A stretch of DNA of 64,000 bases from an uncultured delta proteobacterium (GCA_963789115.1 CAWBJH010000001.1:969419-1033418); one strand, 5' to 3'. Positions 4,210-61,637 are shown, numbered from the stretch's first letter. The notes: generated by a model from the sequence alone, not told the origin. Numbers and translations are program-made.

Positions 4210-4236
4210 CGCGAGATCCTGACAGGCGAGAGCGGA

Positions 4237-4269: not shown

Positions 4270-4284
4270 TGGAGGTTGCGCGCG

Positions 4285-4836: not shown

Positions 4837-5025
4837 CCGATGCGGCCGATTCGCCGCGCCGCACGCTCCGCCAGGGAGTCTTTGCCTCCTTCAATAGCGT
4901 CTTCAGATCATCTTCATTTGCCGGTCTCTCGAATATCATGCGTTTTTGCCGATGGTCTCAGCGCGACGCCGCTGCCGGGATTTTCTGCCCGAATCCATCT
5001 CACGCGTGAGCGCCGCAAACCTCCA

Positions 5026-8295: not shown

Positions 8296-9389
8296 TTGGT
8301 ATCAACTGCGGGGCTGTCGAGGATGACGCGCTGGCCCGCACGAAGCCCGGCGAGGACCTCTACGCGATCGCCAAAACGGCGCCCCAGCGAGACCATCTGG
8401 GTCTGAATTCTTCCTTCAGAAATCACGCGCGCGGTGTCGAGCTGACCCACCTCTTCGATTGCATCGCGCGGCACGGTGAGGACCGTCTCGCTTCCGGTCG
8501 TAAAGGTCGCCCGCGCGAACATTCCCGGCTGGAGATGCTGGCCGCTCGGCAGCGGCGCACGAACTATGAAGCTCCTGCTCGTCGGATCCGAAGCGGGCAC
8601 GATTTCGGTTACTTGCGTGTGGTACTCCACGCCGGTCGCGTCGACCCTGACCTGGAGCAGTGTTCCAGTGTCGATGCTGCGCGCCAGATCCTCGGGCACC
8701 TCCAGTTCGACTCGCAGCGCGTTCTTGTCGTAGAGCCGGACTAGCGGCTTACCCGGCATCGCCATGTCGCCCGGCTCGGCAAGGCGTTCCACGACCACGC
8801 CGTCGACCGGCGAGCGGACGGTTGCATACTCCAACGCCGCGCGCGCCGCTGCGACCGCGGCTTGGGCCTGCGCAACTCTTCCCGTCGCGCCTCGGTACGC
8901 GGCCTCGGCGGCGTCGTGTTCGCTCGCTGTCACGGAGCCGCGCGTGAACAGCGCCGAGAACCGCTTCTCGTCCGCGCTGGCGCGGCTCAGCTCGCCTTGC
9001 GCCGCGGCCAGTTGCCCCTGAGCCTGTGCAACCTGGGCTTTGAGTTCCGCAGCGTTGAGCGCGACGATCGCCTGTCCACGGTTCACCCGGTCACCCGCGC
9101 GGACCCCGACTTCGGTGACGCGCGCAGCGATACGGCTTGCCGCCTCGACCGGGAGCCTCGACTGGATCGAGCCGATCACCTCGCGACGCACGGGGATCTT
9201 CTCACTGAGCACCACTCCGAGCGGGCGGCTTGGAATTTGATCGGCGCTCTGACTGAGCAACCCCGGCTCGATCCTGCCGCCCCGAATCACTCGGACCGCG
9301 AGCCAGAGCAGGGCGATACCGATCGCGGCTGCGAGCAGATAACGCCATCCGGGGCGCACATGGCGCGATTCGGTTAACAGGTCTGCCAT
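8292..9389 (-). CDS. RND efflux periplasmic adaptor (membrane fusion protein)
   Basis: N-terminal TM, coiled-coil hairpin (AQVAQAQGQLAAAQGEL), beta-barrel and MP domains. Start trimmed to MADLL (ATG 9389). Confidence 0.8.
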   Translation of the reverse strand: MADLLTESRHVRPGWRYLLAAAIGIALLWLAVRVIRGGRIEPGLLSQSADQIPSRPLGVVLSEKIPVRREVIGSIQSRLPVEAASRIAARVTEVGVRAGDRVNRGQAIVALNAAELKAQVAQAQGQLAAAQGELSRASADEKRFSALFTRGSVTASEHDAAEAAYRGATGRVAQAQAAVAAARAALEYATVRSPVDGVVVERLAEPGDMAMPGKPLVRLYDKNALRVELEVPEDLARSIDTGTLLQVRVDATGVEYHTQVTEIVPASDPTSRSFIVRAPLPSGQHLQPGMFARATFTTGSETVLTVPRDAIEEVGQLDTARVISEGRIQTQMVSLGRRFGDRVEVLAGLRAGQRVILDSPAVDTK

Positions 9390-9393
9390 TCGT

Positions 9394-10758
9394 TCAGCGC
9401 CCCGATGTCGCCTGCGGCTCCACCCCGCTCGCAAGGTTCAGCGCCGCACGGTCAACCGCCACGCCGACTTGGGCGATAACGAGGCCCATGTCCGCCTCCT
9501 CGCGCGTAGTGTGTGCGTCCAGCACCGCGACGTTGGTGGCGAGGCCGGAGCCGTATCGATCCTCCAATATCTTGAGTGCGCTTGCGGCGTACGCAGTGTC
9601 GCGCCGTGCAACCTCCAACGCCTTTTCGGCGGCGACCAGTGTCCGGTATGCGGTCTCAACCTCGAGCGCCACCGAACGGCGAAGATCGTCGGCGAGTACC
9701 TGCGCGCGCGACCGATCCGCCAGTGCCGCGTCGACCTTTGACTGGGTGGCAAGTCCGTTGAACAAATTCACCCGGCCGGTTACGAGAAGGGCGCTGTTGT
9801 TGCCGGCTCGGGCCAACCGCTCCGAATCGTTCTCATAGACGCCCGCTATTTCGACAGTCGGCAGATAGTCGGCGTGCGAGATGCTGACAGCCTGTTGCGC
9901 CTGCTTGACGCGGGAGTCGACGGCCTTGATTTCGGGCCGCTCCGAAATTGCGCGTGCGACCAAAGCGTCGAGCGGCTCCGGGGGCGGCGCGGGCCCTTCG
10001 AGTTCGGCGGGTTTCTCGAGCGGTGCGAGTCGTTCGTCTTCGTCGCCGAGCGTATGCGCGAGGCTCGCCCACGCGATATTCAGCTGACTCTCAGCCTGGA
10101 TTCGTTGTTGTTCAAGGGTGCCCACCAGGACATAGGTTCTGAGCACGTCGGAGTTGACGACCATCCCGTGCGCAAAAAGATCCTGGGCCTGTGCAAGGTG
10201 AGCGCGCGCCGCCGCCAGCGCACGGCCGACTACCGCTACCCGTTGCTCCGCAAGCACTGCGGTGTAGTACGCCTGAATCACGGCAAACTCTACCCTCTGC
10301 CTGGTTTGGATGACCTGCCAGTGCTCGGCGTCAGCAGCAAATCCCGCCTGGCGATAGGCGGCGATCAGCTTGCCCCCCGCGAAGAGCGGAAACGAAAGGC
10401 GCACCTGGCTCTGAAAGTCCGACAGGAACCCCGGATGGTTGAGAGAATTGACCGCGAAATCGTTCGGTCCGAAATCCTGCTGCAGCAGCAGGTCGGAGAA
10501 AACCTGAACGGGGTTGTCGGTATAGGAGAGATTCTCGCCTGCGTCGAGTCGTGGAATCATCGCGCCACGCGCGACGCTTACTTGGGCCTGCGCAGCTTCG
10601 CTTCCGAAACCCGCGGCTTTGAGGGTGCGGTTGTCCCGCAGCGCAATTGCGGTCGCGTCATCCAGCGAAATCCGCCTCGGTGCCGCGGGCATATCGGCCG
10701 CACGTGCAGCGACAGAAAACAATGCAACCAGGAGCAGCGTTATCGCCGGCCGCAGCAT
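9394..10758 (-). CDS. outer membrane efflux protein (TolC/OprM family)
   Basis: Signal peptide MLRPAITLLLVALFSVAARA and duplicated TolC-like alpha/beta repeats. First gene of the efflux operon. Confidence 0.8.
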   Translation of the reverse strand: MLRPAITLLLVALFSVAARAADMPAAPRRISLDDATAIALRDNRTLKAAGFGSEAAQAQVSVARGAMIPRLDAGENLSYTDNPVQVFSDLLLQQDFGPNDFAVNSLNHPGFLSDFQSQVRLSFPLFAGGKLIAAYRQAGFAADAEHWQVIQTRQRVEFAVIQAYYTAVLAEQRVAVVGRALAAARAHLAQAQDLFAHGMVVNSDVLRTYVLVGTLEQQRIQAESQLNIAWASLAHTLGDEDERLAPLEKPAELEGPAPPPEPLDALVARAISERPEIKAVDSRVKQAQQAVSISHADYLPTVEIAGVYENDSERLARAGNNSALLVTGRVNLFNGLATQSKVDAALADRSRAQVLADDLRRSVALEVETAYRTLVAAEKALEVARRDTAYAASALKILEDRYGSGLATNVAVLDAHTTREEADMGLVIAQVGVAVDRAALNLASGVEPQATSGR

Positions 10759-12023: not shown

Positions 12024-12935
12024 CTAGACGCGCTGGATTCGGAAGCCCACCTTGGGGAAGTGAACGACGATCTTGCCGAGGGTCGGCTCCTCCCGCTCGA
12101 TCGCGATTTCGTACGTCGATAGCGCGACGACCGTTCCTCTTACCGCCTCGAAGCCGTAATCATCGGCGGTGACGCTCACCTTCATCCCGGGCTCGAGCCC
12201 ATTGGGGTCGGCCGGGTCCGCGATGACGTGCGTTGGCGAGGCGCTCGCGCGCGCGATCGTGAGCGCCTCGTCGGGATCCATCGGCTGCATGTTGCCGTGT
12301 CCCATCGCGTCGATCCGCTCGAACCATCGCATCAGGCCGGCCGAGCCCTGCACCATCGCGAAGCTCGCGGGCTCGTTGCGCATGAACCACAAGCAATGGA
12401 AGCAGGCCGCATCGGCGAGGCTGAACGCGTTGCCCAGAAGGAACGGCCGATCGAGGAGCTGCCCATCGAGCATCGCCAGGAACGCGCGCACTTGGTTTCG
12501 CGCGTCGGGCGCCGTTTGCAGAAGCTCGGCAAGACTCGCTCCGCCCATCAACTTCTGCCGATCCTCGATAAATTCCTTGGGCATCATCGGCCCCATCTTT
12601 TCGAACACGACCGCGATCACCGACAAGAACAGCCTGCGGTCGGCCCACAGGCCGATCGCGTGGCAGAGCCCCTCGCTGTTGCCGGGGTAGAGCGTCGGGT
12701 CGGGAAAAAGCTCCTCGAGCTTGCGCACGATTATTCCCGTGTCGCAGTAGACGTCCGCCCCGATCTGCATCACCGGAACCCGCCGATAGCCTCCGGTCAG
12801 CGGGGTGAGCTTGGGCTTCGGCATGATCGCAGGCTGATCGACGCCGCGCCAACTCACCCGCTTGTGCGCCAGGATCTTGCGGATCTTCTCCGAGAACGGC
12901 GACATCGCGTAGTGATGAAGGATTATCTCGGCCAT
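12024..12935 (-). CDS. glutathione S-transferase family protein with C-terminal extension
   Basis: N-terminal thioredoxin-like GST domain (ILHHYAMSPFSEKIR) and C-terminal helical GST domain. Start trimmed to MAEIIL (ATG 12935). Confidence 0.75.
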   Translation of the reverse strand: MAEIILHHYAMSPFSEKIRKILAHKRVSWRGVDQPAIMPKPKLTPLTGGYRRVPVMQIGADVYCDTGIIVRKLEELFPDPTLYPGNSEGLCHAIGLWADRRLFLSVIAVVFEKMGPMMPKEFIEDRQKLMGGASLAELLQTAPDARNQVRAFLAMLDGQLLDRPFLLGNAFSLADAACFHCLWFMRNEPASFAMVQGSAGLMRWFERIDAMGHGNMQPMDPDEALTIARASASPTHVIADPADPNGLEPGMKVSVTADDYGFEAVRGTVVALSTYEIAIEREEPTLGKIVVHFPKVGFRIQRV

Positions 12936-13066
12936 GGCATTCCTCTCGATGGCTGGCTGTCGGGGCTGTCTCCGCCTTTCTCTCTCCGTGCGACACCTCA
13001 ATAGCCGATGTAATCCGCGATTGCGAGACGTTGAACCGCACGCCGCCGATACCGTACCTTGCGCGT

Positions 13067-13709
13067 ATGTACGGACATCCCGAGTTCGATCTCTTCGAGG
13101 CCATCTACACGACCCGCTCGATGCGCCGCCTCAAGCCCGACCCCCGTGGCTCCTGAAATAATCATAAAGCTCATTGAGGCGGCCACGATGGGGCCGAGCG
13201 GCAGCAATCGACAGCCCTGGCAATGGATAGTCGTCACTGAAAAGGAAACCCGGGAGCTGGTCGGCGACGGCTACGCCAAGGCGTGGGAGCGCTACCTCGG
13301 TCCCGAAGCTCGCGCGATCCTGGAGAACGAACCGCAAAGCCCGCAGGGCCGGATTCTCAGGTCCGCGCGCTACCTCGCCTATCATATCGCGGAGGTGCCG
13401 GTGCTGATCTTCGCGTGCGTCAAGATCTACGACGACCCGGCGCGTCGGGGGCAGCCGATGGTCAACGCGCTCTTCCCGGCGATCCAGAACTTATGCCTCG
13501 CCGCACGCGCCCACGGGCTCGGCACCTGCATCACGCAGATGCATCGCATGTTCGGTGCAGAAATCGACCGCCGGCTCGGCATACCGCCCGAGTACTCCAA
13601 CGTCGCGCTGATACCGGTTGGGTATCCAAAGGGCCGATGGGGCCGCCCGGACCGCAGGCCGGCAGCCGAGGTCACCTATTGGGAACGATGGGGCGAACGG
13701 CGCACATGA
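13067..13709 (+). CDS. nitroreductase family protein, apparent +1 frameshift in the C5 run at 13141-13145
   Basis: ATG 13067 opens frame 2 giving MYGHPEFDLFEAIYTTRSMRRLKPDP (canonical nitroreductase N-terminus) and stops at 13154. The family continues in frame 0 as VAPEIIIKLIEAATMGPSGSNRQPWQWIVV... to 13709. Confidence 0.7.
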
Positions 13710-18688: not shown

Positions 18689-20035
18689 ATGAGGCTCAGC
18701 GGATGGGGCCGCTATCCGATCGCGCAAGCGCAGGTCTACCGCCCCGAGAAAATCGCGGAACTGGCCGCGATCGTATCCGGCAACGCGACCAGCCTGATCG
18801 CGCGCGGCGCCGGTAAAGCTTACGGCGACGCGGCGTTGAACGATCGCAACCGGGTGGTCGATATCGGCCGCCTCAACCGGATGTTGAGCTTCGACCCCGC
18901 CACCGGCGTCCTGCGATGCGAGGCGGGAGTGACGCTGGCGGAGATGATCGACGTCTTCCTGCCGCGGGGTTTCTTCCCGTCGGTCACCCCAGGCACCAGG
19001 TTGGTAACCGTGGGCGGCTCGGTCGCTGCCGACGTCCACGGCAAGAACCATCATCGCGACTCCTCGCTCGGCAGTCATGTACTGAGCCTCGACCTGATGC
19101 TCGCCTCGGGCGAGGTGCGCCGTCTCTCGCGCGAGCAGGAGCCGGAGCTTTTCTGGGCGACGATCGGCGGGATGGGACTGACGGGAGTAATCCTCGAAGT
19201 CGAGCTTCGCCTGCACAAGGTCGAGAGCGCATGGATCGAGGGCGAAGTGATTCGCGCCCGGGATCTGGATGAGGCGATCGAGACCTTCGAGCGCTCCGAC
19301 CGCGAGTACGGTTACTCGGTGGCCTGGATCGATTGCGCGAGCCGGTCCGACAGCGGCCGGCTCGGCCGCTCGGTGATCAACCTTGGAAATTTCGCCGCGC
19401 GCCAGAGCCTTGGCGGTATGAAATTAGCCGCTCCGTTTCGCGGCCGGCGCCGGCTTCGCGCTGCGGTGCCGTTCGACCTGCCCAACTTCGCGCTCAGTTC
19501 GCCCACCGTCCGCGCCTTCAACGCCGCCTACTTCGCGCTCCATCGCGGCGGTCGCGGACGCAAGCTGATCGATTACGAAAGCTTTTTCTACCCGCTCGAC
19601 TCGATTCGCAACTGGAACCGCATCTACGGCAAGCGCGGCTTCGTCCAGTACCAGTGCGTGTGGCCGCTCGCCGAGAGTCGCGAGGGACTAATCGAAACGC
19701 TGGAGCAGATCGCGCGCAGCGGGCGCGGCTCGTTCCTGACCGTGCTCAAGAAATTCGGGCCGCAGGAAGGGATGCTATCGTTCCCGATGCCCGGTTACAC
19801 GCTGGCGCTGGACTTCCCGCTCGCAGAGGGACTGTTCTCGTTCCTGGACGGCCTGGATGAGATGGTGCTCAAACGCGGCGGGCGCGTGTACCTGGCCAAG
19901 GACGCGCGGATGAGGCCGGATGTGTTCCGCGCGATGTATCCGAACTTGGCGCGATGGCAGGCGGCCAAGGCCGCGGTCGACCCGAACAACCGCTTCTCGT
20001 CCTCGCTCTCGCGCCGGCTCGCGATGGAGCCCTAA
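18689..20035 (+). CDS. FAD-dependent oxidoreductase, DprE1-like (decaprenylphosphoryl-beta-D-ribose 2'-oxidase family)
   Basis: LSGWGR, ARGAGKAYGD, VTVGGSVAADVHGKNHH, ELFWATIGGMGLTG, YQCVWP and C-terminal AKDARMRPDVFRAMYP...RRLAMEP all match conserved DprE1 blocks (from memory of the M. tuberculosis sequence). Start trimmed to MRLSGWG (ATG 18689). Confidence 0.85.
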   Translation: MRLSGWGRYPIAQAQVYRPEKIAELAAIVSGNATSLIARGAGKAYGDAALNDRNRVVDIGRLNRMLSFDPATGVLRCEAGVTLAEMIDVFLPRGFFPSVTPGTRLVTVGGSVAADVHGKNHHRDSSLGSHVLSLDLMLASGEVRRLSREQEPELFWATIGGMGLTGVILEVELRLHKVESAWIEGEVIRARDLDEAIETFERSDREYGYSVAWIDCASRSDSGRLGRSVINLGNFAARQSLGGMKLAAPFRGRRRLRAAVPFDLPNFALSSPTVRAFNAAYFALHRGGRGRKLIDYESFFYPLDSIRNWNRIYGKRGFVQYQCVWPLAESREGLIETLEQIARSGRGSFLTVLKKFGPQEGMLSFPMPGYTLALDFPLAEGLFSFLDGLDEMVLKRGGRVYLAKDARMRPDVFRAMYPNLARWQAAKAAVDPNNRFSSSLSRRLAMEP

Positions 20036-20098
20036 ATGAAACTGGCTGCCTTCCTATAGTTTTCACCCTCCGGGGGAGACTACAGAGGGGTTAAACCG
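19915..20098 (+). repeat. direct repeat copy 1 (3' end of the dprE1-like gene plus about 60 bp downstream)
   Basis: About 92% identical to 20600-20785. Contains the 16-bp core ctgccttcctatagtt. Confidence 0.8.
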
Positions 20099-20144
20099 CC
20101 TGCCCTCCTATAGTTGCGTTAGGAATTACAGACCGAGGCATAAA

Positions 20145-20597
20145 ATGAAGATCGAATACGCGGTTCTAGCTGATGCGGCTCAAGCAGTTGGCGGCAAGGT
20201 TTTTATCCTTGGTGGCGGGTGGAACGTTTTCCGTGCAGCAAACTATCCCACACCGATCCAGCTTGCCGTCGCGGTCGGGATAGCTTTCACGCTCAACGAG
20301 ATCGGCATCAAATATCCTCTGAGCCTCGTGATCGCGGACGAAGCGGGTGTGCCAATAGTCCCAGAAATGAAAGGGCAAGTAGAAACTGGTCAACTCCCGC
20401 CCGATGCTCCCAAGGGCGTACCGATAAACGTGCCGCTGGCGGTCAACATGAACTTGTCTATTCCCCGCCCCGGCAAATACGGAGTTCTGGTCACGGTTGG
20501 TTCCTCCAAGGCACAACTGTCGTTTGACGCAATCTTCGTGGGCCAGAAGGTGCAGCTCGCGCCTCCTGAGGATTCTGCATTGGAGCGTGGCAACTAA
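20145..20597 (+). CDS. hypothetical protein, cargo of the short insertion
   Basis: 150 aa (MKIEYAVLADAAQAVGGKVFILGGGWNV...), no recognised family. Lower GC than flanks. Confidence 0.45.
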   Translation: MKIEYAVLADAAQAVGGKVFILGGGWNVFRAANYPTPIQLAVAVGIAFTLNEIGIKYPLSLVIADEAGVPIVPEMKGQVETGQLPPDAPKGVPINVPLAVNMNLSIPRPGKYGVLVTVGSSKAQLSFDAIFVGQKVQLAPPEDSALERGN

Positions 20598-20599
20598 AA

Positions 20600-20785
20600 G
20601 CCGGATGTGTTCCGTGCCGATGTATCCGAACTTTGCGCGATGGCAGGCGGCCAAGGCCGCGGTCGGCCCGAACAACCGCTTCTCGTCCTCGCTCTCGCGC
20701 CGGCTCGCGATGGAGCCCTAAATGGAACTGGCTGCCTTCCTATAGTTCTCACCCTGCGGGGGAGACTACAGAGGGATTAATGGCG
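20600..20785 (+). repeat. direct repeat copy 2 (displaced diverged copy of the dprE1-like 3' end)
   Basis: Encodes ...MYPNFARWQAAKAAVGPNNRFSSSLSRRLAMEP* in frame but detached from any gene body. Abuts the dprE2-like start. Confidence 0.8.
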
Positions 20786-32444: not shown

Positions 32445-33044
32445 CTAAAAGTTGATGTACCTTTCCAAACGCAACGGCTGCACGGCTGCTTTCAGGTATA
32501 CCTCGGCAGTCAAATTGAACTGACCCCAGGCGGCGGTCTGCAGCTGGAAATTGGTCTCTCTGTTCGTGATTTCTCGGGTCGGATCTCGAAAGGTCGGATG
32601 AAGGTGGTAGGCAACCCTGCGGACAGCATCTAAGTCGGAATCGTCCTCACCTTCCAGAGAGATTCGTAGGCGGTAGTACTGGTACTCTCCTTGGTCGAGG
32701 TCTCTAGCCCGCCTGGCAGTGTGAATAAGGTAAAGACGGGAACGGTTAGATTGTAAGTTCGTCGATGCGTCCTTCGCCGTTCCTTCGGGGTATTGCTCGC
32801 TTTGCACTACGGATTCATCAACTGCAGCTGTTCCAACAAGCTCCTTGGCCACGATACGGTGGCCTTCTCCTAGCTTGACACCGCTCGTTCCTGCCTCGAA
32901 GGGGTCACCGGCTTCTACGCGCAGCCGAATGGCGTCCAAGAGCCGCCCTACCGCCCGGCGATATCGAAAAGCCACAGCAGCTATTATTAACGGCCAGGTC
33001 AACGCCTCTAGCGCGGTCTGAAATAGTGGTATCCAGTCCTTCAT
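32445..33044 (-). CDS. membrane-anchored protein with C-terminal YEATS-like domain
   Basis: N-terminal TM (IPLFQTALEALTWPLIIAAVAF). C-terminus RVAYHLHPTFRDPTREITNRETNFQLQTAAWGQFNLTAEVYLK aligns with the eukaryotic YEATS core (VVFHLHESFPRPKRV...[21 protein letters not shown]). GC about 52%. Confidence 0.5.
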   Translation of the reverse strand: MKDWIPLFQTALEALTWPLIIAAVAFRYRRAVGRLLDAIRLRVEAGDPFEAGTSGVKLGEGHRIVAKELVGTAAVDESVVQSEQYPEGTAKDASTNLQSNRSRLYLIHTARRARDLDQGEYQYYRLRISLEGEDDSDLDAVRRVAYHLHPTFRDPTREITNRETNFQLQTAAWGQFNLTAEVYLKAAVQPLRLERYINF

Positions 33045-33092
33045 TAGACACGCACTCTACCGCGTTGCTACCGCAGAAACGAGTCGTTTACC

Positions 33093-33941
33093 TCAAGAAT
33101 TGGTCGCGCCGCTTCGAAGTGCGCGACACGCCTCTTCCACTAAATGCCGCATGGTCGCCCAAGCCTCCGGGGTACCGAACGTTCTTGCAAAAGCGATTAG
33201 CCCATCCATGACGACGGTCTGGACAATAAAGGTGAGCATCCAGCTGTCGCTTTCCAGACCGAACAGATTCTTTATTATCGCGCCCGTCAGAGGTGCCCCC
33301 GGCACCAGGAGCAAGGACGGGTCGCCGCGGAGGGCTTCCTGGCCTCGCATCATTTCGCCGAAGGCATCGAAATATTCCTGGTATCGCGTCTGGGACAACG
33401 CGGAAATCCTCTTGATGGCCACCGCCCACGCCAAACGCGCGTCCTCGCCATCAGGGCGGCCCATGAAATAGATAAACTCATGATATTGATCGAGAAAAGC
33501 GCGCTTTTCCGCAGCGCTTACTTTCGGAACAGCGCGCATAACGCACAGTGTAACCCACCAAAGGTTCAGCACCATGCGTTCGTCCTCATTTGCGTCGCGG
33601 CCTCCCAATTCGGGGGCCAGATCCTTATCTGATCCTAAGCGGCCAATGATCCACTCTGCGAGAGCCTCCTTCCCAAAGGCAAGTTCAGTAAGAGCCTTCA
33701 GACCCTTCTCCGTGCCCTGTTGCGCCTCCAGAAGATCGAGGAGTCCCCGATAGCCCCCTTCGAGCGCCTCTCTCTTGTTCAGCTCACGGAGGGTTTGAAG
33801 GACCGCCGGCCGAGTCTCCCTGTTTGTAATAAGCTCACGAAGCTCGTTAAGGGACTCCGCAGTCTGGATCGGCTGCTCGGCCCAGGAGTCAATTTTCTCG
33901 CCTTCGGCTGCTCCGAACAGACGCCGCAAAAGCTTGATCAC
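33093..33941 (-). CDS. hypothetical alpha-helical protein, operon partner of the YEATS-like gene
   Basis: 282 aa, no recognised motifs. Same strand, 48-bp spacer, same lower GC. Confidence 0.45.
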   Translation of the reverse strand: MIKLLRRLFGAAEGEKIDSWAEQPIQTAESLNELRELITNRETRPAVLQTLRELNKREALEGGYRGLLDLLEAQQGTEKGLKALTELAFGKEALAEWIIGRLGSDKDLAPELGGRDANEDERMVLNLWWVTLCVMRAVPKVSAAEKRAFLDQYHEFIYFMGRPDGEDARLAWAVAIKRISALSQTRYQEYFDAFGEMMRGQEALRGDPSLLLVPGAPLTGAIIKNLFGLESDSWMLTFIVQTVVMDGLIAFARTFGTPEAWATMRHLVEEACRALRSGATNS

Positions 33942-34109
33942 TTCTTTGGAGCTCGTCTACTAAAACTTATCTCAACGGATTATTCGCGAAAGAGGCGGTG
34001 GGGTTCGATCCATTCTGAAGTGGGAGCGGTCGCCCCCGGCGCATGCGGCCCGCCCGCTGCTTTTGCGCAGGTAAGGGTTCTGCTGCTGTCACTACCAGAC
34101 CACCAGGCA

Positions 34110-34802
34110 CTAGCGGCCGTAACCCATCGCTTCCAGAAAATCGTCGAGGCTGTCAAAGCGCATATACAGGTTGCGGCGCTTCTCTTCGCCGATCGTGCTG
34201 CTCGGCTCCACAGCGTAGGCGTGGCCCGGATACACCACGGTCGAGTCATCGAGGTTGCGCAAGGTCTGATTCAGACTGTAGTACATCGCCTCCGGATCCG
34301 AGCCGGGCAGATCGACCCGCCCGCAGGAGCCGACGAACAGCGTGTCGCCGGAAATCAAATTACCGTTGACCAGAAAACACTGCGACCCCGGCGTGTGGCC
34401 CGGGGTGTGCAGGAACTTGACTTCCAGGTTGCCGACCTTGAGGACCTCGCCGGCGTCGACCTTGACGATATCCGAGTCGGACAGTCCGGCTATCTGCCTG
34501 GCACCCTCGGCCTCGTGCTTGTTCAGGTAGACCTTGGCCTTGACCCGCGCGAGCATCTCCGCCGCACCTTTGATGGTGTGACCCATGATCCGGCCGCCGA
34601 GATGGTCGGGATGGTAGTGGGTGATCAGGATTTTGTCGATCTGGTAGCCGTCGCGCTCGGCCAGGTCGCAAATCGTGCCGACCTCCCACGCCGGATCGAC
34701 CACCGCCAGCTTGCGCGTGGCGGGATCTCCGATCAGGTAGACGAAGTTCGCCATCGGGCCAAGCTGGAGCTGGCGGATGTGGATCTGCTGCCGGTTCGTC
34801 AT
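34110..34802 (-). CDS. MBL-fold metallo-hydrolase (glyoxalase-II-like)
   Basis: ITHYHPDHLGG metal-binding motif and HTPGHTPGS. Confidence 0.85.
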   Translation of the reverse strand: MTNRQQIHIRQLQLGPMANFVYLIGDPATRKLAVVDPAWEVGTICDLAERDGYQIDKILITHYHPDHLGGRIMGHTIKGAAEMLARVKAKVYLNKHEAEGARQIAGLSDSDIVKVDAGEVLKVGNLEVKFLHTPGHTPGSQCFLVNGNLISGDTLFVGSCGRVDLPGSDPEAMYYSLNQTLRNLDDSTVVYPGHAYAVEPSSTIGEEKRRNLYMRFDSLDDFLEAMGYGR

Positions 34803-34860
34803 CAGATTCCCTCTGGCTGTTCTTATCGCCCGCTCAGGCGCCTCTCAATCGTCGCGCTGG

Positions 34861-35511
34861 TCAAGATTTTTCCGGCCTGGACGATTTGCGACGCGCCACG
34901 CGTGGCGCCTTGGGATCGATGCGCAGCCCGCGGTCCCACAGGAACTCGGGCTCGCCGAGGCGCTTGGCGACCCATCGCGATTGCACGAACAGATGGTCGC
35001 TCAAGCGGTTGACGTAAATCAGCAACTGGTCGTTCAGCGGCTCCTCGCGCTCGAGCCTCCAGCACACCCGCTCCGCGCGGCGGCATACGGTGCGCGCCTG
35101 ATGCAGGAACGCGTTGAGCATTGCGCCGCCCGGCAGCGTGAAGGATTTCAGCGGTTGAAGCGCGGCCTGCATCCGGTCCATCTCCTGCTCGAGCTTCTCG
35201 ACCTCCGCGCCGCCGATCTTGTGCATGCCTTCATATTCCGCATCGGAGGGGGTGGCCAGTTCGCTGCCGACGTCGAACAGCTCATTCTGGATCCGCCGAA
35301 GCATCTCGGAGTACCACCCGTAGTCGGCGCCGAGTGCCTTTTCAGATTGCGGGAGCAGGGTGCGCACGATTCCCACGATCGAGTTGAGTTCGTCGATCGT
35401 GCCGTAGGCCTCGATCCTGCCGCTGTCCTTGGGCATGCGCGCGCCACCGACCAGTGCCGTCAGGCCTTTATCGCCGGTGCGGGTGTAAATCCGAGTCAGC
35501 CGTATCGCCAT
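34861..35511 (-). CDS. ATP:cob(I)alamin adenosyltransferase, PduO type
   Basis: IYTRTGDKGLT N-terminal motif and the helical bundle characteristic of PduO/MMAB. Confidence 0.85.
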   Translation of the reverse strand: MAIRLTRIYTRTGDKGLTALVGGARMPKDSGRIEAYGTIDELNSIVGIVRTLLPQSEKALGADYGWYSEMLRRIQNELFDVGSELATPSDAEYEGMHKIGGAEVEKLEQEMDRMQAALQPLKSFTLPGGAMLNAFLHQARTVCRRAERVCWRLEREEPLNDQLLIYVNRLSDHLFVQSRWVAKRLGEPEFLWDRGLRIDPKAPRVARRKSSRPEKS

Positions 35512-35615
35512 CTACAGCCCGGCTTTAGCTTATCAAAATCTCGAGTCCGACAGGCGAGTGCCCGCTGCCGCGCCACGACCCCTGGACCCTGATTGCGCCG
35601 CTCGCGCTCGAGGGC

Positions 35616-43471: not shown

Positions 43472-43990
43472 ATGCTTGATATTCTTGGCCTTATGGCAGC
43501 GCTCGAACCCGGCAGGCAGTTACCGTCTTTCAGGCTCAAGGATCTCGACGGGAAAATCCGCACACGCGAGGAACTGAGCAAAGGCGGCCTCGGGCTCCTG
43601 ATTTTCTACCATCGCGAATGCCCGGTGTGTCAGTTCTCGGCGCCGTTCTTCGGCGCGATCGCGCGGGCGATGGGCTCATCGGCCCAGGTCGGAGTATGGG
43701 GCGTCAGCCAGGACCCTGAGGAGGAGAGCGAGGAGTTCGCACGCCGCAACGAGCTGCGGATGCCGATCCTGGTCGACGAGGATCCCTATCCGGTCTCCAA
43801 CGCCTGCAGGATCACGAACGTGCCGACCCTGTTCCTGATCGACAATCACGGCAAGATCGTGCAAACCTGCGTCGGCTTCGCGAAGGACGACTTCAGCAAG
43901 ATCGCGGAGCAACTGGCTTCAAAGGCCGGCGTCAAGCCGCCCGACCTTTTCGCCGGCCGTTCCGATATCCCTGCGCTCAGACCGGGCTGA
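43472..43990 (+). CDS. thioredoxin-fold redoxin (TlpA/peroxiredoxin-like)
   Basis: CPVC active-site motif in thioredoxin-fold context (LLIFYHRECPVCQ). Confidence 0.75.
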   Translation: MLDILGLMAALEPGRQLPSFRLKDLDGKIRTREELSKGGLGLLIFYHRECPVCQFSAPFFGAIARAMGSSAQVGVWGVSQDPEEESEEFARRNELRMPILVDEDPYPVSNACRITNVPTLFLIDNHGKIVQTCVGFAKDDFSKIAEQLASKAGVKPPDLFAGRSDIPALRPG

Positions 43991-44030
43991 AGCTCCCATA
44001 ACGCGGGCTGAGTTTCAGCCCGCCTCGGGC
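43858..44030 (+). repeat. direct repeat copy 1 (3' end of redoxin gene, stop codon and terminator hairpin)
   Basis: Homologous at nucleotide and protein level to 46600-46775. Hairpin gggctga-gtt-tcagccc at 44005-44021. Confidence 0.75.
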
Positions 44031-44167
44031 GCGCGCGCCGCTAGCTTGCGCGATTCGTTTGCTTGGGAAACGGCGCTTGACTTACGGGCTGTGGGGTAAG
44101 GGCGGCCTTTTGACGAGTTGCCTCGTTCAGCGGGGGCTCCCGATCAAACAAGGACGTAACAAAATCT

Positions 44168-45391
44168 ATGTCCTGGCTACTCGCGCTCGGTCTGCTGCTA
44201 GTTTCAGTTCTGGTCTTCCGTCATCGCTCGCACCGTAGGAATAGCGGTTCCGGTGGCGTGTCGGCGTCAACTGGCCCCTCCGTCTCAGTTTCGATAACCG
44301 GTTCCGGCTCCCATTCCGCACCCGACACGGGCGCTCCGACGACCGTTGTCGGAAGCGACTCCTGGGTTATCAACCCTGAAAGCAGCTTTCCTCTAACGAT
44401 CCGCCCGGCAAACGGAGAAATCGCCCGGCAAATTAAGGCCTTGCTTGACCAAGGTGGCGATAGGCTGAGGCTCAACGAATCCCTTCGATCCCTTATGCTA
44501 AGAGAAGGGGTACGGTGTAAGGAAATCGACGATTACGTCGCCCGTTTCAAACCCGCATACCTCGCAACTGTCGAAACTCTCAAGAAGGCTACGCCCGAGT
44601 GGTCCACCGCGTCGCAGCTCGATCGCGGCGATCTCCTGGAAGAGTTTCGAGCAAAGGCCGTCCAGATGCTTGAGGTCAGCCCGGCTGCGATTTGCGATGT
44701 TCGGACCCTATTTGAATGCGAACCGGACTTCGGGGAGGTACGGAACCTGTTCGTCCGCAATGGGACTGAAGCAATTGATCTTTGCAACCTGTATGGGCGA
44801 TATTCTCAAAATATACGAAAGGTCCACCACCTGCCTGCTGACGACCTATATCGGCGGCCGGACTTTGAAAAGCTTGTTGAAGCCGGCTTAGCGGCTCGCG
44901 GCCTTCAGATTCCTGTTTCGGATATTCTTAATAGTTTAACGCTTAAGGAGCTTCGAGCGGTGGTTGCCGACACCAGCACACCGTTCTTCAAACGGAAAGC
45001 CGAGGCGGTCGAGTACGCCGCGGGGCTCCGTGACATTACCGACCGCCTTGCTAAGGTGATGGCCTTCCGAGAACTGTTTCAACTCCGTCCACTGCCTCAG
45101 AAGCTTTCCGTGGTCGCCTCAGAGCTCTTTTCGGAGCCCGTACTGCAAACGAAAAGGTTTGCACATGAAGCGTCGTGCTTAATCGCACACACGTACGCGA
45201 TGGGTGCGTATGACTTGAGGGACCGGAGCGACCCCGCGCTTGCAAAAATGGCGTTGGGATGGGAGATTAGCGCCGACGACGGCTCATGTCCGATGTGCAG
45301 GAAAGCTGCGGCAAGACTTTACCCGAAGGGAGCCCGCCCGCGCGCACCTTTACACATCGGATGCCGATGCGGCGTCGAAGCAAAATTATAA
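44168..45391 (+). CDS. hypothetical protein: N-terminal TM, Ser/Gly-rich linker, C-terminal Cys cluster (CPMC...CRC)
   Basis: 407 aa, no family recognised. Lower GC. Confidence 0.5.
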   Translation: MSWLLALGLLLVSVLVFRHRSHRRNSGSGGVSASTGPSVSVSITGSGSHSAPDTGAPTTVVGSDSWVINPESSFPLTIRPANGEIARQIKALLDQGGDRLRLNESLRSLMLREGVRCKEIDDYVARFKPAYLATVETLKKATPEWSTASQLDRGDLLEEFRAKAVQMLEVSPAAICDVRTLFECEPDFGEVRNLFVRNGTEAIDLCNLYGRYSQNIRKVHHLPADDLYRRPDFEKLVEAGLAARGLQIPVSDILNSLTLKELRAVVADTSTPFFKRKAEAVEYAAGLRDITDRLAKVMAFRELFQLRPLPQKLSVVASELFSEPVLQTKRFAHEASCLIAHTYAMGAYDLRDRSDPALAKMALGWEISADDGSCPMCRKAAARLYPKGARPRAPLHIGCRCGVEAKL

Positions 45392-45489
45392 TCATCCCGC
45401 GACTTTGTCAGGGCAATGTCCGGTTCGCTGTTGAAATTGAGCAGCGGCTGGATACTAACCTAAGCTGCAGCCTTTTCTATGGGATCGAT

Positions 45490-46428
45490 TCAGGCGCGAG
45501 GATCGTAACCCGGGACCGGCGCAACAGGCATATCGAGGACATCGTGCGAGGAATTCATCGGAAAGATGAACGTCGCCTTCGAGTTGATTTCGATCACTTC
45601 AACCCGATCGGCACCCACGAGTTTCAGCTTGAAGTGAAATGGAGATGTCATCGCGCAACCGAGGTCCTGACGAGCCCGTTTGACCAGCGTGTCGATGTTC
45701 TGTGTCATGTAATCTTGTATTCCGGAAAAGATCCGGCAAGCGTTGTCATGCTGATCGACGACCTCGTCGCTGATCCCGGACATTGCGTATCCCCCACCTG
45801 GCGCACAGTAAACGACCCCGTCGATCTGGGTCGCCGATTGGACGTGGGCGGACCGGAGCTTCTTGATGTCATCGTCGCTAGGCGTCATCTCCAGTGCCAG
45901 CACGCCTTTGGGCCGATAACACTCGATCAGTTTCGGCCAGTTACGATGGATGATTTCCAGCAACCGCTGCCTCGCCCAATCCCCGTGCTCCATGACGTTG
46001 ACGGCGAAAAGTTCATCTGCAGTGACGTACGCGAAGAGTACTGAGCCAGTACGCTGGACGAAGTCGGGTGCATCTCGCTCAGGGGTGGTACCCAGGTGAA
46101 AGTGATGGATGCGCCAGTCGTTCAACAGAGCATCGTTGTAGTCGGGTTGCAGCAGCCCTTTGCTCTGATGCGAGCGCAGGTCGAGGCCCTTGGCCGCCCT
46201 CTTAAGCAGGAGATTAAGGCCGGCGCGATGCTTATAAGGGCAAGTTAGCTCCCGTGACTGAAAGATAGTGCGTACACGCAGCGGGATCACCCGTCGCTGA
46301 ACGTTGTAAAACGCCAGGGAGATTGCCTCCGGCGTCTCGCTCGGCTTCAGAGTATAGCCCATGCTGACCAGTTCAGTCCTTTGCATCTCGCACCAATCGG
46401 CGAGAAAGTTTGCGGTGATTTCGGGCAT
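45490..46428 (-). CDS. hypothetical protein (312 aa from MPEITANF)
   Basis: Convergent with 44168-45391. aggagg before ATG 46428. No family recognised. Confidence 0.5.
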   Translation of the reverse strand: MPEITANFLADWCEMQRTELVSMGYTLKPSETPEAISLAFYNVQRRVIPLRVRTIFQSRELTCPYKHRAGLNLLLKRAAKGLDLRSHQSKGLLQPDYNDALLNDWRIHHFHLGTTPERDAPDFVQRTGSVLFAYVTADELFAVNVMEHGDWARQRLLEIIHRNWPKLIECYRPKGVLALEMTPSDDDIKKLRSAHVQSATQIDGVVYCAPGGGYAMSGISDEVVDQHDNACRIFSGIQDYMTQNIDTLVKRARQDLGCAMTSPFHFKLKLVGADRVEVIEINSKATFIFPMNSSHDVLDMPVAPVPGYDPRA

Positions 46429-46599
46429 CGGCCTCCTTTCCGCTCGAACGAGGCGAGCGGAACCTTCTAGAATGCTCCACCCGAACGTTCCAATCAACCG
46501 GAATTTTCATTTTCAATCCTGAATCGAATTAGAACCGACGCCGGGCGTTTAGCAATTGCGAAGTTCGAGCCCGGTTTTGGGCCAGAAGGCCGGGCTGTA

Positions 46600-46775
46600 C
46601 GTGTAAAGCAGTGGGTCGGGTTCTCGAAGGCCGATTTTCTCGACATCGCGGCCCATCTCCCGCGCGCTTGCGGCGTCAAACCGCCTGATATCTTGGCCGG
46701 GCGAAGCGACATTCCGGCGCTCATACCCGGCTGAAGCTCGCATAACGCGGGCTGAGTCGCAGCCCGCCTCTCGAG
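46600..46775 (+). repeat. direct repeat copy 2 (displaced diverged redoxin 3' end)
   Basis: In-frame remnant VKQWVGFSKADFLDIAAHLPRACGVKPPDILAGRSDIPALIPG* versus the native VQTCVGFAKDDFSKIAEQLASKAGVKPPDLFAGRSDIPALRPG*. Confidence 0.75.
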
Positions 46776-46811
46776 TAGTACGGACGCCCTCCCGCCGGTG
46801 AACGGGGCCCG

Positions 46812-47069
46812 CTAACCGCGGCGGAAGATCGCGAACTCTTCCTCGAACCTGGCGGCGCGTTCCTGGGCCGAGGAAGCGCGCTGGGTGCGCAGGAAGAACT
46901 GCACCAACTCCTCGTGACTCACCCGGCCGGTAGGGCTGACTACCTCGACCAGCTCCTCGATCAGGCCCGGAAACTTTTCGCTCGGGATGTAATAGTGGGC
47001 CCAGCCGAAGTTGCAGTTTCGATGCAGGATTTTGGCGATCGCCTTTTCCAACGCCTCGCGTGTAGTCAT
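46812..47069 (-). CDS. small hypothetical protein (85 aa)
   Basis: MTTREALEKAIAKILHRNCNFGWAHYY... Immediately downstream of and co-oriented with the 47120-48022 gene. Confidence 0.4.
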   Translation of the reverse strand: MTTREALEKAIAKILHRNCNFGWAHYYIPSEKFPGLIEELVEVVSPTGRVSHEELVQFFLRTQRASSAQERAARFEEEFAIFRRG

Positions 47070-52877: not shown

Positions 52878-53828
52878 CTAGAACAACGACTGCTGTAAGG
52901 CGACCGGAGCCGGTTCCGCTAACCTGTCAGGCAACGGCTTGAGTTCGTCCTCGAAACGAAACCGACTCGCTTCGAGGTACGGCGCGTGGTGTTCTACGGC
53001 TATCCACTTTCGGCCCTCGCGTTCACAGGCCTCGCCGGTCGTGTTGCTGCCCGCAAACGGGTCAAGCACGAGATCGCCGGGGTCGGTGAGGAACCGAATA
53101 AAGAAGGTCGGAAGCTGAACCGGGAATCGCGCGGGATGAGGCGTCATGTGGTTCAGCTTGCAGAGTTCGAGATAACGTCCGTTTGCGTCGTTGTTGCCGT
53201 GTACCAGGAGATTCGACGGGATCGAACCTCCCCGGTCAGTAAACTTCCTGGTTATTACGTGTCCTGACGGCCGGACCTTTGGACGGTAGCCTCGCTTAAC
53301 CAACCGGTGCATGTCAGGGCTGTATTCGTTCAACACCTTTTGATTGTCGGACTTCGGGTTGGGTGTCTTTGACAACCACCAAAGGCAGTTGACCGCGTCT
53401 TTCACCCTGATCTTTCTGACAGTGACCCACTCCGCCGGCGAGGGGAGCTTAGCGGGGTTGTACCAATAGAACTCCTGTGCGAGGTAAAACCCGACTTCGC
53501 GAACGAGCGCGATCAGCAACTCGAAGTGGTAGAGCGAGCGCGTCGGTTTGCCGGGCGTCCACGCGCCGCCAATGTCGATCACGAAACTGCCGTCGTCGCG
53601 AAGAAGGCGGTGGACCTGGCGAGCAAATGGCAAGAACCATTCGACATACCGGCGCTGGTCGGCGTTGCCGTATTCCTTCTTGAAGTGAAGCGCGTAAGGC
53701 GGTGACGTGAACGCGAGGTTCACGCTCGCGGTCTCAAGGCCGGCCATAAGGGGCAGGGAATCGGCTAAGTAGGCGCGCCCGAGTTTCGTTGCGTAAAGGG
53801 GCTTGGAGGCTTTGAGGGGCGACTGCAC
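52878..53828 (-). CDS. DNA methyltransferase (beta-class N4-cytosine/N6-adenine type, SPPY)
   Basis: Motif IV TSPPY N-terminal and motif [12 protein letters not shown]-terminal. No adjacent restriction gene. Confidence 0.85.
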
Positions 53829-58479: not shown

Positions 58480-58956
58480 ATGAAACCCCTGTTTTTCTGT
58501 GGATTGTTGGTGCTCCTGAGCGGCCACGCATGGGCGGAGTGCATACCGTCTCCGGAATGCGTGCAAGCCATAAGGGACACGCCTCTCAACCCACGGACAC
58601 TTGGAGAGAAGTGGGATGCGGAACAAAGAGTGGCCCTAATGTGCAAAGAGTACCGGGAATGCAGAGTAGAGCAGGCGGCTCACGAGGAACAGCAGCGCGA
58701 AAAGCTGCAGCAGATGGAAGAGCGGCGGCAGCAGAAGGAATCATTTGATCGGGAAGTGGATCAGGATGCGGAGGGATGGGTAGAAACCCAGATCAAAGGA
58801 AAAGACCCGAAAGGAATCCGTGAACTGATCGCATCTCAGGAAAACTGGTTAAAAGATCATCCCGCCGCCGAACCTGCACCCGACATGCACGCGCGGATAA
58901 GAAAACTGCGCGACCGGCTTCGCGACATGGAGCGAACGAAACCTGTAGTCCAATGA
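58480..58956 (+). CDS. hypothetical secreted protein (signal peptide, Glu/Gln/Arg-rich helical region)
   Basis: MKPLFFCGLLVLLSGHAWA signal. Lower GC. Confidence 0.45.
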   Translation: MKPLFFCGLLVLLSGHAWAECIPSPECVQAIRDTPLNPRTLGEKWDAEQRVALMCKEYRECRVEQAAHEEQQREKLQQMEERRQQKESFDREVDQDAEGWVETQIKGKDPKGIRELIASQENWLKDHPAAEPAPDMHARIRKLRDRLRDMERTKPVVQ

Positions 58957-59055
58957 AACCAGTCCGGATCACGAAGCTCACGGCCCTGCTCACGGGCTCC
59001 CCGGCCTTTGCGCTCTCCGGCCCTTTCTCGTTGGACGGGGGATCGCGAAGCTCGG

Positions 59056-59514
59056 TTAATGCCGCGCAATCAAGCCGACGACCGTCGCAAAAAGGGTAAC
59101 CAGCGCGACCACACACGTGAAAGCAACCCAGACGTGCGTGCGGTGAATAACATCCCATCCCGCCCCTGTAAGCCGATACATGACGACCATGTTGCTCACA
59201 ATCGGGAAGTTCGGCGGTAGGTCACCGCTTGGCGTGAGCTGCCATTTAGGTATGGCTCTATGGTCTATTGGCTCCGCCCATCCACGAAGATCACAGGTTC
59301 GCAACGCTTCATCAACGCCTTCATCGCTCGTCGGGCCTAGTTCAATGACCCAAGCGTTGCCGGGCTGAAGGATCGTCACGATCCGCTGGCGGGCAAGCCG
59401 CTTCAGCACGCGCCGGATGGCTCGTTCACGTCGGAAGCCAAGAAGAAGATCCATTTCGTCTGAACATAGCCTTGCGGCCCATCCGTTGCCATCGAATGGG
59501 CTAACTGCTATCAA
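59056..59514 (-). CDS. hypothetical protein with C-terminal TM helix
   Basis: 152 aa, TTG start. VWVAFTCVVALVTLFATVVGLIARH anchor. Confidence 0.4.
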   Translation of the reverse strand: MIAVSPFDGNGWAARLCSDEMDLLLGFRRERAIRRVLKRLARQRIVTILQPGNAWVIELGPTSDEGVDEALRTCDLRGWAEPIDHRAIPKWQLTPSGDLPPNFPIVSNMVVMYRLTGAGWDVIHRTHVWVAFTCVVALVTLFATVVGLIARH

Positions 59515-59520
59515 CAGCTC

Positions 59521-59554
59521 ATCTCTTCGGCCCCATCTTTATTTCGGGCGCGGC
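59521..59554. repeat. 34-bp direct repeat DR-right of putative island
   Basis: atctcttcggccccatctttatttcgggcgcggc. Followed directly by a G9 tract (59555-59563). Confidence 0.75.
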
Positions 59555-59566
59555 GGGGGGGGGAGG

Positions 59567-60346
59567 ATGGTGGTCAAGATGGTGACAGTACAGTATCAAG
59601 AACGATTCGTAGCATTCGTCGATATCTGGGGGTTTGGCGATCTGGTGCGTCGGTCCGTTCTTGGCAATGACGGCATCAGCGCCTCGACCGTCCATGACGT
59701 TTTAGACCTGCCGAAGCCGAGCGATGAAGACCAAATCGTGCTTGGGCGGATCGGCGATATTTCAAAGTCCGGGCATTGTATGACTGCATTTTCTGATTGC
59801 GTTGTTATATCGACAGACCTCACCGAGGCCGGACTCATACATCTCGTCGACCACGTCTCAAGAATTGGCTTCCGCCTTCTCAAGATCGGGTACCTCTATC
59901 GCGGTGGCGTAGTCCGGGGACTACTCTGGCATCAGCCCGACAAGGTGTTTGGCCCGGCGCTGATTGAGGCATATCAGATCGAGCGTACCGAACGTTTTCT
60001 GCGAGTGCTCGTCTCCGACGATGTTGTGAAATGGGGACTGGGTTGCGCGAAACCCGTGAACACGATCTTCAGTAGACTCATTCGCAAGGATGACGATGGC
60101 AAATACATGGTTCACGTGCTCAGATACTTCTCGCAATTCGATGATCTCACCAACTTACGAGACAAGATCAGCGAGGTCAGGGACCGGTTCGAGAAGAAAT
60201 TAACTAGGTTGACGCAAAACCAAATGGCCGAGGCGGCGGGAAAGGTATCTTGGTTTCTAAGGTACTTTGATCGGATTACGATCCGACCGAACTTGAACGT
60301 GCCTTTCCCGGCTGTCAGGCCGCTGAAAGCTACTGACGCCCGGTAA
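59567..60346 (+). CDS. class III nucleotidyl-cyclase-like domain protein (stand-alone)
   Basis: FVAFVDIWGFGDL (cf. F.DI.GFT), RIGDISKSGH (cf. TIGDAYMA), GYLYRGGVVRGLLWH...VFGPALIEAYQIE (cf. GIHSGPVVAGVIG...YDVWGDTVNLASRME). The G9 tract forms the RBS. Confidence 0.55.
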   Translation: MVVKMVTVQYQERFVAFVDIWGFGDLVRRSVLGNDGISASTVHDVLDLPKPSDEDQIVLGRIGDISKSGHCMTAFSDCVVISTDLTEAGLIHLVDHVSRIGFRLLKIGYLYRGGVVRGLLWHQPDKVFGPALIEAYQIERTERFLRVLVSDDVVKWGLGCAKPVNTIFSRLIRKDDDGKYMVHVLRYFSQFDDLTNLRDKISEVRDRFEKKLTRLTQNQMAEAAGKVSWFLRYFDRITIRPNLNVPFPAVRPLKATDAR

Positions 60347-61560: not shown

Positions 61561-61637
61561 TGGCGCCCCCTGCGGGATTCGAACCCACGACCCCAGGATT
61601 AGGAATCCTGTGCTCTATCCATCTGAGCTAAGGGGGC
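61561..61637 (-). tRNA. tRNA-Arg (anticodon CCT), CCA encoded
   Basis: Manual fold: acceptor GCCCCCT/AGGGGGC, D-arm GCTC-AGATGGATA-GAGC, anticodon arm CAGGA-TTCCTAA-TCCTG, T-arm GTGGG-TTCGAAT-CCCGC, discriminator G, then CCA. Confidence 0.85.

Follow-up and report, generated by a model that had tools for sequence, protein, structure and literature searches.

We analysed a window of 64,000 nucleotides (nt) from an uncultured delta proteobacterium (GCA_963789115.1 CAWBJH010000001.1:969419-1033418; positions below are counted from its first letter), which belongs to a Candidatus Binataceae metagenome-assembled genome (MAG), and focused on a small defence islet located directly downstream of a redoxin gene. 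The redoxin gene (plus strand, 43472-44011; AhpC/TSA, TlpA-like, with a CPVC motif) matches the Pfam families AhpC-TSA (6e-16) and Redoxin (1.7e-9) and is followed by unique DNA of lower GC content (44027-46593), in which two independent genes are convergently transcribed, namely a gene for a 407-amino acid (aa) candidate defence protein of a rare, unnamed family (plus strand, 44168-45391) and a gene for a 312-aa homologue of PD-T4-7 with a predicted RelE/ParE-fold domain (minus strand, 45490-46428). This unique part is bracketed by two plus-strand copies of the redoxin 3' end, a proximal one at 43870-44026 and a distal one at 46594-46770. Past the distal copy lie a spacer (46771-46800) without counterpart in relatives that lack the insert, which may be donor DNA or lineage-specific, and a small conserved native gene of 85 aa outside the insert (minus strand, 46812-47069), which adjoins the redoxin gene in relatives.

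The stretch of 2,744 bp that separates the redoxin copies is a true insertion of foreign DNA, in agreement with a preliminary description of this stretch that had proposed an insertion of about 2.6 kb downstream of the redoxin gene. Close relatives were found by exact-protein look-ups and a metagenome scan, and four contigs from other samples (L023, L034, L035 and L036), whose redoxins share 87-92% protein identity with that of the window, are insert-free. They are collinear with the window up to position 44024 and resume at approximately 46801-46807, so that the redoxin hairpin and the stop codon of the small gene on the minus strand are 0-13 nt apart; the comparison suggested in the preliminary description, that is, whether the redoxin is elsewhere followed directly by the gene at 46812-47069, thus gave the expected arrangement in all four. 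In L035, synteny continues for a further 2.6 kb downstream at 94.6% identity. The GC content of the interval is 56.4% versus 64-65% in the flanks, and GC at third codon positions (GC3) is 0.60-0.69 in its genes versus 0.79-0.86 in the neighbours. Junction comparison places the start of the insert exactly at the end of the conserved block shared by the two redoxin copies. A scan of a genome collection with the redoxin protein gave 147 pattern matches and no relatives by tblastn, and a further relative (L019, 88%) was uninformative as a site comparison, having other neighbours on both sides.

Considering that the window derives from a metagenome-assembled genome, we also examined whether an assembly artefact had joined strain variants. 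Because the filled site, with both junctions, was recovered identically in independent assemblies of different runs from three datasets (L001, L002, L020, L021 and L022), and because the copies have no string above 17 nt in common on which an assembler could go astray, this explanation can be excluded for all practical purposes and retains a negligible probability.

The repeat search aligned 43927-44026 with 46671-46770 at 82% identity over 100 nt (E 5e-17 in a blastn comparison of the window with itself), and weaker in-frame similarity extends upstream to about 43870 and about 46610, giving overall spans of approximately 43870-44026 and 46610-46770. The translation of the distal copy ends in VGFSKADFLDIAAHLPRACGVKPPDILAGRSDIPALIPG followed by a stop, and the last 45 residues of the redoxin match it at 63% identity (E 2e-14, tblastn). 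The redoxin tail therefore does recur in frame, as had been reported, but its claimed length of 58 codons is reduced to about 43-47 codons of solid homology. A 32-nt core is present exactly twice in the 64 kb (0 expected by chance), which agrees with the near-identical 31-bp block described across the stop codon and with the view that the flanking similarity is not a generic repetitive extragenic palindromic (REP) element. The 45-nt block around this core is identical at 41 of 45 positions, and the longest exact match between the two tails is 17 nt.

The proximal copy is the native, working 3' end, and the resident redoxin gene has been left whole: its 3' end is about 95% identical to those of the empty-site relatives L023 and L034, and so is the rest of the gene. 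It was previously suggested that the element supplies a replacement 3' end; here the functional end is the native one, and it is the truncated distal copy that is foreign. This distal copy has no start codon, has an in-frame stop upstream and bears, farther upstream, GFSKADFLDIAA, a motif characteristic of a separate redoxin lineage (P0053/P0054, with an overall identity of about 61%). Among the last 20 codons, 13 differ from the resident tail, 10 of them synonymously, and the proportions of synonymous (pS) and nonsynonymous (pN) differences (Nei-Gojobori) are 0.61 versus 0.115 over these 20 codons and 0.63 versus 0.28 over 44 codons. Because of this synonymous bias and the residues of another lineage, the distal copy is foreign rather than a decayed target duplication, namely a fragment of a distant, once-functional redoxin orthologue that arrived with the insert.

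A long target-site duplication made in situ, whose distal copy then decayed, is a way in which a second insertion of the window described below (95.6% identical repeats, distal frameshift) could be read. For the redoxin locus it is very unlikely, and the pS/pN pattern refutes it, since a decaying duplicate would show no bias between near-saturated synonymous and few replacement differences, and would not have acquired residues of another orthologue lineage. A diversity-generating retroelement was also considered and rejected, as Pfam detected no reverse transcriptase domain and the differences between the copies hit all bases, are mostly synonymous and are not confined to adenines.

The most conserved part of both copies had been read as a stop codon with a terminator hairpin. 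It most likely represents a selenocysteine (Sec) codon with a selenocysteine insertion sequence (SECIS) hairpin, and the redoxin is probably a thioredoxin-fold selenoprotein with Sec near its C-terminus. In the proximal core (plus strand, 43988-44023), the annotated TGA at 43988-43990 is followed in frame by a short extension reading ALRPG-U-SSHNAG up to a probable true stop, TGA, at 44009-44011, and by a hairpin with a stem at 44003-44011/44015-44023 and the loop GUU. The hairpin has a 9-bp stem (-30 kcal/mol) and no U-tract, and it was not called as a terminator. The distal copy has the same elements on the plus strand, namely UGA at 46732-46734, the SSHNAG extension, a stop at 46753-46755 and a hairpin at 46747-46767.

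The UGA, the extension and the hairpin are conserved across the redoxin family. In a set of 77 orthologous metagenome loci with 36-92% protein identity (the redoxin-family loci concerned being L034-L113), TGA is found at the annotated stop in 77 of 77, TAA or TAG in none, and all of them have 4-10 in-frame codons past the TGA before a real stop, although the predicted proteins of the family all end at the same glycine. The extension peptide is KPG-[TGA]-GSKN and a stop in most loci, with the general pattern (G/S)(S/A)(K/R/H)N, and RPG-[TGA]-SSHNAG and a stop in the window gene, its relatives and the distal copy. The extension varies at third positions (GGC/GGA/GGG/GGT, TCG/TCC/TCA, AAC/AAT) or by Lys/Arg swaps that involve multiple base changes, and thus behaves as coding sequence. 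In all orthologues the hairpin begins 13-15 nt past the TGA and its loop opens with G-rich sequence, while the stem sequences are quite different. Covariation across 29 sequences supports it, with 93% of cells paired and five of seven pairs changed on both sides, compared with at most 61% for slid controls; within the subfamily to which the window gene belongs, the stem hardly varies (CUGA-GNN-UCAG), so that support there is positional. Separately, the redoxin probably starts at ATG 43493 (M8, MAALEPG...), where most homologues begin, and the seven extra N-terminal residues (43472-43493) are common only to the closest relatives.

Certain results weigh against the selenoprotein interpretation: Rfam produced no match here with E-values as high as 10, its sole match in the whole window being the tRNA; no NCBIfam selenoprotein model matched the redoxin; and selA, selB, selC and selD are not in the 64-kb window, where the only tRNA is tRNA-Arg. 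A covariance model built from the GSKN-type alignment, which was too short, scored the longer variant of the window at 5-7 bits (E about 1-3), among chance matches, which counts neither for nor against this interpretation. A literature search for the UGSK/PGUG motif returned nothing relevant, and the UGA motif is not among the selenoprotein motifs listed in a 2026 review (PMC13188914). Compared with the bacterial thioredoxin-fold selenoproteins covered there (PMC13188914), the redoxin is alike in its invariant TGA, its conserved coding continuation and the hairpin 13-15 nt downstream, but differs in that the putative Sec lies near the C-terminus (KPG-U-GSKN and a stop), in addition to an intact CPVC, and not within CxxU/UxxC. 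Functional constraint on the 45-nt block explains why it is identical at 41 of 45 positions while standing beside saturated synonymous sites. The conservation of the core is thus weak evidence for an attachment (att) site, and the proposal that the 31-bp block is an att core gives way to that of a family-wide Sec-UGA with a SECIS-like hairpin.

With regard to the cargo, the preliminary description had suspected a defence module and had found neither protein recognisable. PADLOC identifies the 312-aa protein, at the level of profile matches, as a PD-T4-7 homologue, with a near-full-length match to PDLC04066 (3.6e-43; residues 44-295 versus positions 47-307 of the 337 in the profile) and a match to a second PADLOC model at 5.4e-31. 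PD-T4-7 is a single-gene anti-phage family with 'similarity to toxic proteins' and an abortive infection (Abi) classification (Vassallo et al. 2022, PMC9519451). The 312-aa protein resembles it in having a toxin-like domain of predicted RelE-type fold, which fits the toxin-like/Abi class, and in that its homologues are solitary genes; it differs in coming from a distant phylum (Binatia versus E. coli), and its defence role is a predicted one. With its RelE-fold toxin domain, it most likely causes abortive infection via translation or mRNA damage. A second PD-T4-7-like gene, 72% identical and encoding 291 aa, was observed in the same MAG (L024, JBAPPA010000084.1, 6479-9907), in an islet where its companions are a DUF559/MTES_1575 endonuclease gene and a PIN/PhdYeFM toxin-antitoxin pair. 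The suspicion of a defence module is thus borne out for the 312-aa gene, and the 407-aa gene remains a candidate.

The 407-aa protein is modelled with high confidence (predicted local distance difference test, pLDDT, 92.9). Its transmembrane (TM) anchor (residues 2-23) and a disordered linker precede a helical body, and a small β-structure at the C-terminus holds an invariant CPxC...PLHIGCRC zinc-ribbon motif of the phage MuF type. Its earlier characterisation as a TM/Zn-ribbon-like protein was therefore accurate, and it can be placed in a rare unnamed family. The protein itself has no Pfam, NCBIfam or PADLOC match, and only a marginal similarity to the PHROG annotation "head morphogenesis". 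Basic residues after the N-terminal TM helix suggest that the remainder of the protein is cytoplasmic. An exhaustive profile search recovered 538 cluster representatives among 1.84 billion, 232 of them below 1e-30, with lengths mostly about 400 aa. The family has members in Binatia, delta-proteobacterial MAGs, Terriglobales, Eubacteriales, Bacteroidia, Flavobacteriia and an ANME-1 archaeon, and a sequence search of solved structures with the family profile found nothing.

Several lines of evidence connect the C-terminus of this family with phage head proteins. Viral model matches to the 407-aa fold are almost all MuF-like minor capsid proteins (E about 1e-3, with low TM-scores), 13 of 44 family members have a Pfam match to PF04233 (best 2.6e-5), and a profile comparison by hhalign with a phage MuF protein, whose gene adjoins a portal-like gene, gave 96.5% probability over the last 49 columns only. 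The CPxC...P(L/F)HIGCRC zinc ribbon is common to the family and to phage Mu F/SPP1 gp7 (PF04233), but the match is limited to the last 50-80 residues of the 407-aa protein, and, unlike those phage proteins, the family is membrane-anchored at its N-terminus and located away from portal and terminase genes. A Phage_Mu_F minor head protein was accordingly rejected as its identity: the window protein does not match PF04233 even at E up to 1, the matches of its relatives are weak, no phage structural genes (portal, terminase) were found among its neighbours in 16 loci, and no full-length member was detected in 2.9 million viral contigs (IMG/VR). The helical body weakly resembles SAP and winged-helix domains and FAN1, the latter (SAP-TPR-VRR_NUC) being its best, though weak, match among solved structures, and one family member has a C-terminal VRR_NUC nuclease domain in the FAN1 order. 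The body might therefore be DNA-binding, although these modelled resemblances are weak, and a FAN1-like nuclease was rejected for the 407-aa protein itself, which does not show the combination of a SAP-TPR body with a VRR_NUC catalytic domain.

The 60 neighbours of 407-family genes examined in 15 loci include Avs1a, LmuA, SspH, DRT, a type IIG restriction-modification system, HEC-01A, PDC-S05, PDC-S57 and mad8, and an Abi_C gene with an MNT nucleotidyltransferase gene lies at one family locus (L028). No neighbour is conserved around the family in 14 loci. A linkage of the two cargo families was considered and rejected, since the genes beside the closest 407 homologues (L028 and L029) are not PD-T4-7-like and the 14 loci have no neighbour in common. 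We conclude from these comparisons that the 407-aa gene is a stand-alone gene of a variable, defence-rich part of the genome, with a zinc-ribbon module in common with MuF proteins. We take it to be a putative second stand-alone defence or superinfection-exclusion gene, whose membrane-tethered product could detect or trap phage DNA, or proteins associated with the portal, on their entry; the defence neighbours, a small and uncontrolled set, count against putting much weight on this.

A second insertion of the same layout is present in the window (plus strand, 19915-20780), as the preliminary description had noted for 19915-20785. Its repeats (19915-20094 and 20600-20780) are 95.6% identical over 181 nt and consist of the 3' end of an FAD-oxidase gene and the whole spacer; the distal copy is frameshifted and runs precisely up to the start codon of the SDR gene that follows, giving a 686-bp unit. 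The cargo is a DUF6941 gene (20145-20597; Pfam 9e-16) with a GC content of 0.55 versus 0.66-0.68. The repeats of the two insertions have no motif in common, and their longest common string is 8-10 nt. The absence of a common motif argues against one trans-acting site-specific recombinase, so the proposal of a recurrent trans-mobilised mechanism for both insertions is not upheld.

Around other members of either cargo family, gene-tail repeats were found in one locus only (L003, a delta-proteobacterial MAG contig, contig_93721). There, at 7123-10416, genes for a 423-aa protein homologous to the 407-aa one and for an unknown 249-aa protein lie beside an abhydrolase gene, and the far-side remnant consists of two abhydrolase pieces (7260-7306 recurring at 10308-10353, and 7837-7868 at 10372-10403) that are 91-100% identical; located 3 kb upstream is an AAA_21/DUF4276 pair (PADLOC HEC-01A). 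A further locus (L005, 9969-11165) has a Y1 transposase (RAYT-like) and four REP-like repeats beside a CyanoTRADDas_TM gene, with an 81% identical copy of the 3' end of that gene on the far side; the layout is alike, and the cargo is quite different. In total, four gene-tail layouts with unrelated repeats and cargo occur in this small sample (two in the window, L003 and L005).

To account for these observations, we propose that the donor DNA already bore, in addition to the cargo, a tail from a distant redoxin relative and integrated by homology-dependent recombination, without a recombinase of its own. In one route, a circular molecule carrying the cargo and the tail of a gene X would enter the resident X by a single Campbell-type crossover; in another, the islet and its scar would have moved between relatives by flanking homologous exchange from an already-scarred donor. 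The crossover could have been anchored in the only near-identical stretch, which comprises the Sec UGA, the short coding extension and the SECIS hairpin. The resident gene has remained intact, and the foreign tail survives at the distal end of the insert as a non-functional fragment. Insertions of one architecture whose repeats are unrelated in sequence are better explained by homology-dependent integration than by a single site-specific enzyme. On balance, we therefore favour homology-driven over site-specific integration, with a confidence slightly better than even, the recombination route itself being inferred.

Certain observations are unfavourable to this proposal. A RecA-type crossover is inefficient at about 82-91% identity over 45-100 nt, particularly as no exact match exceeds the 17 nt given above. 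In addition, relatives lack the 30-40 nt that follow the distal hairpin, which leaves the precise junctions uncertain, although an exchange from an already-scarred donor would account for this missing segment. Finally, the recombinase scan covered a sample of the window ORFs (open reading frames) within 64 kb: the interval, which has only two genes, encodes no integrase or recombinase, as had been stated and as a Pfam scan confirmed, and no recombinase was detected among 30 other window ORFs, including all low-GC3 ORFs.

The preliminary description had favoured a site-specific element that targets a gene 3' end. Direct repeats do occur at both ends, but neither a recombinase of its own nor a reused att site was found, and the presumed core is functionally constrained. 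Among the 62 further redoxin loci whose downstream sequence extends for at least 400 bp, none has a second redoxin tail, indicating that the redoxin 3' end is not a recurrent target. A related explanation is a cis-mobilisable integrase-less element (CIME-like), mobilised by a tyrosine or serine recombinase encoded elsewhere with the block at the redoxin stop as its att core. It would agree with the direct repeats flanking the insert, the 41/45-identical block at the junctions, the insert beginning exactly at the block end, the absence of a recombinase in cis and the second window insertion of the same layout. We nevertheless regard it as rather unlikely, in view of the fact that UGA/SECIS function across the 77 loci fully explains the conservation of the block, that neither an element nor a second tail occurs in those 62 loci, that the two insertions lack a common motif, that the ORFs scanned encode no recombinase, and that about 130 nt of homology with mainly synonymous divergence is unnecessary for an att site.

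CIMEs of the ICESt1/ICESt3 family at fda are integrase-less islets with att-like repeats at the 3' end of a housekeeping gene. The redoxin islet is similar to them in having a small cargo downstream of a conserved gene, direct repeats over the gene end and no recombinase of its own. The repeats of CIMEs, in contrast, are short identical att cores derived from a known integrase, whereas the repeat here is about 100-150 nt long, has a synonymous divergence (dS) >1 and coincides with a putatively functional RNA/coding element, and no cognate integrase or sister element was found. When the element e14 and phage 21 integrate into icd, the 3' end of that gene is duplicated in a form diverged at synonymous sites. 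The redoxin locus resembles this superficially, in that there too a second gene 3' end with mainly silent differences stands at the far side of the element. With e14 and phage 21, the copy brought by the element becomes the working end and an integrase is present, whereas at the redoxin locus the native end works and the foreign copy is dead.

Another possibility is that the islet is the stump of a larger prophage, integrative and conjugative element or integrative and mobilisable element that lost its own integrase and most of its genes by deletion. Vassallo et al. (PMC9519451) found their defence systems mostly in prophages, other mobile elements or remnants of these, the 407-aa protein bears a phage MuF-type motif, and a foreign redoxin tail would be the expected leftover of imprecise excision from an earlier host. 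We consider such a stump decidedly unlikely, because the 2.6 kb contain no other phage or conjugation genes or pseudogenes and their coding density leaves no room for any, the viral contigs have no full-length 407-family member, the neighbours of this family are not phage structural genes, and no larger element was detected at the redoxin site in any relative examined.

Homology-driven integration, our preferred explanation, also permits a broader and more doubtful conjecture, to which we assign a low probability: cassettes of this kind may move without any integrase, the cargo and the tail of a gene X leaving as a circle via the tails and re-entering at an orthologue of X, with the 407-aa gene, carried here and in L003, being a new single-gene anti-phage system. 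One homologous crossover would suffice for re-entry, located where conservation is highest, which at this locus is the Sec-UGA/SECIS block, and the scar itself would make the cargo mobile.

Several other features of the window were observed. A run of genes with low GC3 (0.59-0.65) at 32445-35592 includes one with a prokaryotic YEATS domain (32445-33044; PF20305, 1e-21), and the rest of the run has no Pfam or PADLOC family match. Further low-GC3 ORFs (0.47-0.61) without a family match, at 4101-5009, 12160-13104 and 58480-60346, may be foreign or spurious. A solitary type II DNA methyltransferase gene (52878-53828; PADLOC MTase_II, 4e-118) is located between tetrapyrrole-methylase-family and ferredoxin-domain genes, and no adjoining restriction enzyme was identified. 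In addition, non-coding-looking direct repeats of 67-125 nt and 78-91% identity, without an Rfam match, were found at 60736-60802/62870-62936, 23231-23296/62178-62245 and 55833-55952/60965-61084, and one such pair brackets tRNA-Arg(CCT) at 61561-61637.

Taken together, this is a small islet of defence genes that was taken up at a housekeeping locus, which is a kind already known. Its filled site and four empty sites document that defence genes entered an ordinary housekeeping locus without recognisable mobile-element machinery. For many defence islets no mobile element can be seen nearby, which makes it worthwhile to understand how they entered. Two leads are of wider interest, namely the unnamed membrane-anchored family with the MuF motif and the probable C-terminal selenocysteine in the redoxin family. 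The 407 family is rare and confidently folded, and combines a membrane anchor and a phage-head zinc ribbon with defence neighbours in several phyla. The TlpA/AhpC-like redoxin family is widespread in Acidobacteriota, Binatia and their relatives and is routinely annotated as ending at the probable Sec TGA, a probable mis-annotation that would affect selenoprotein annotation and counts in soil bacteria.

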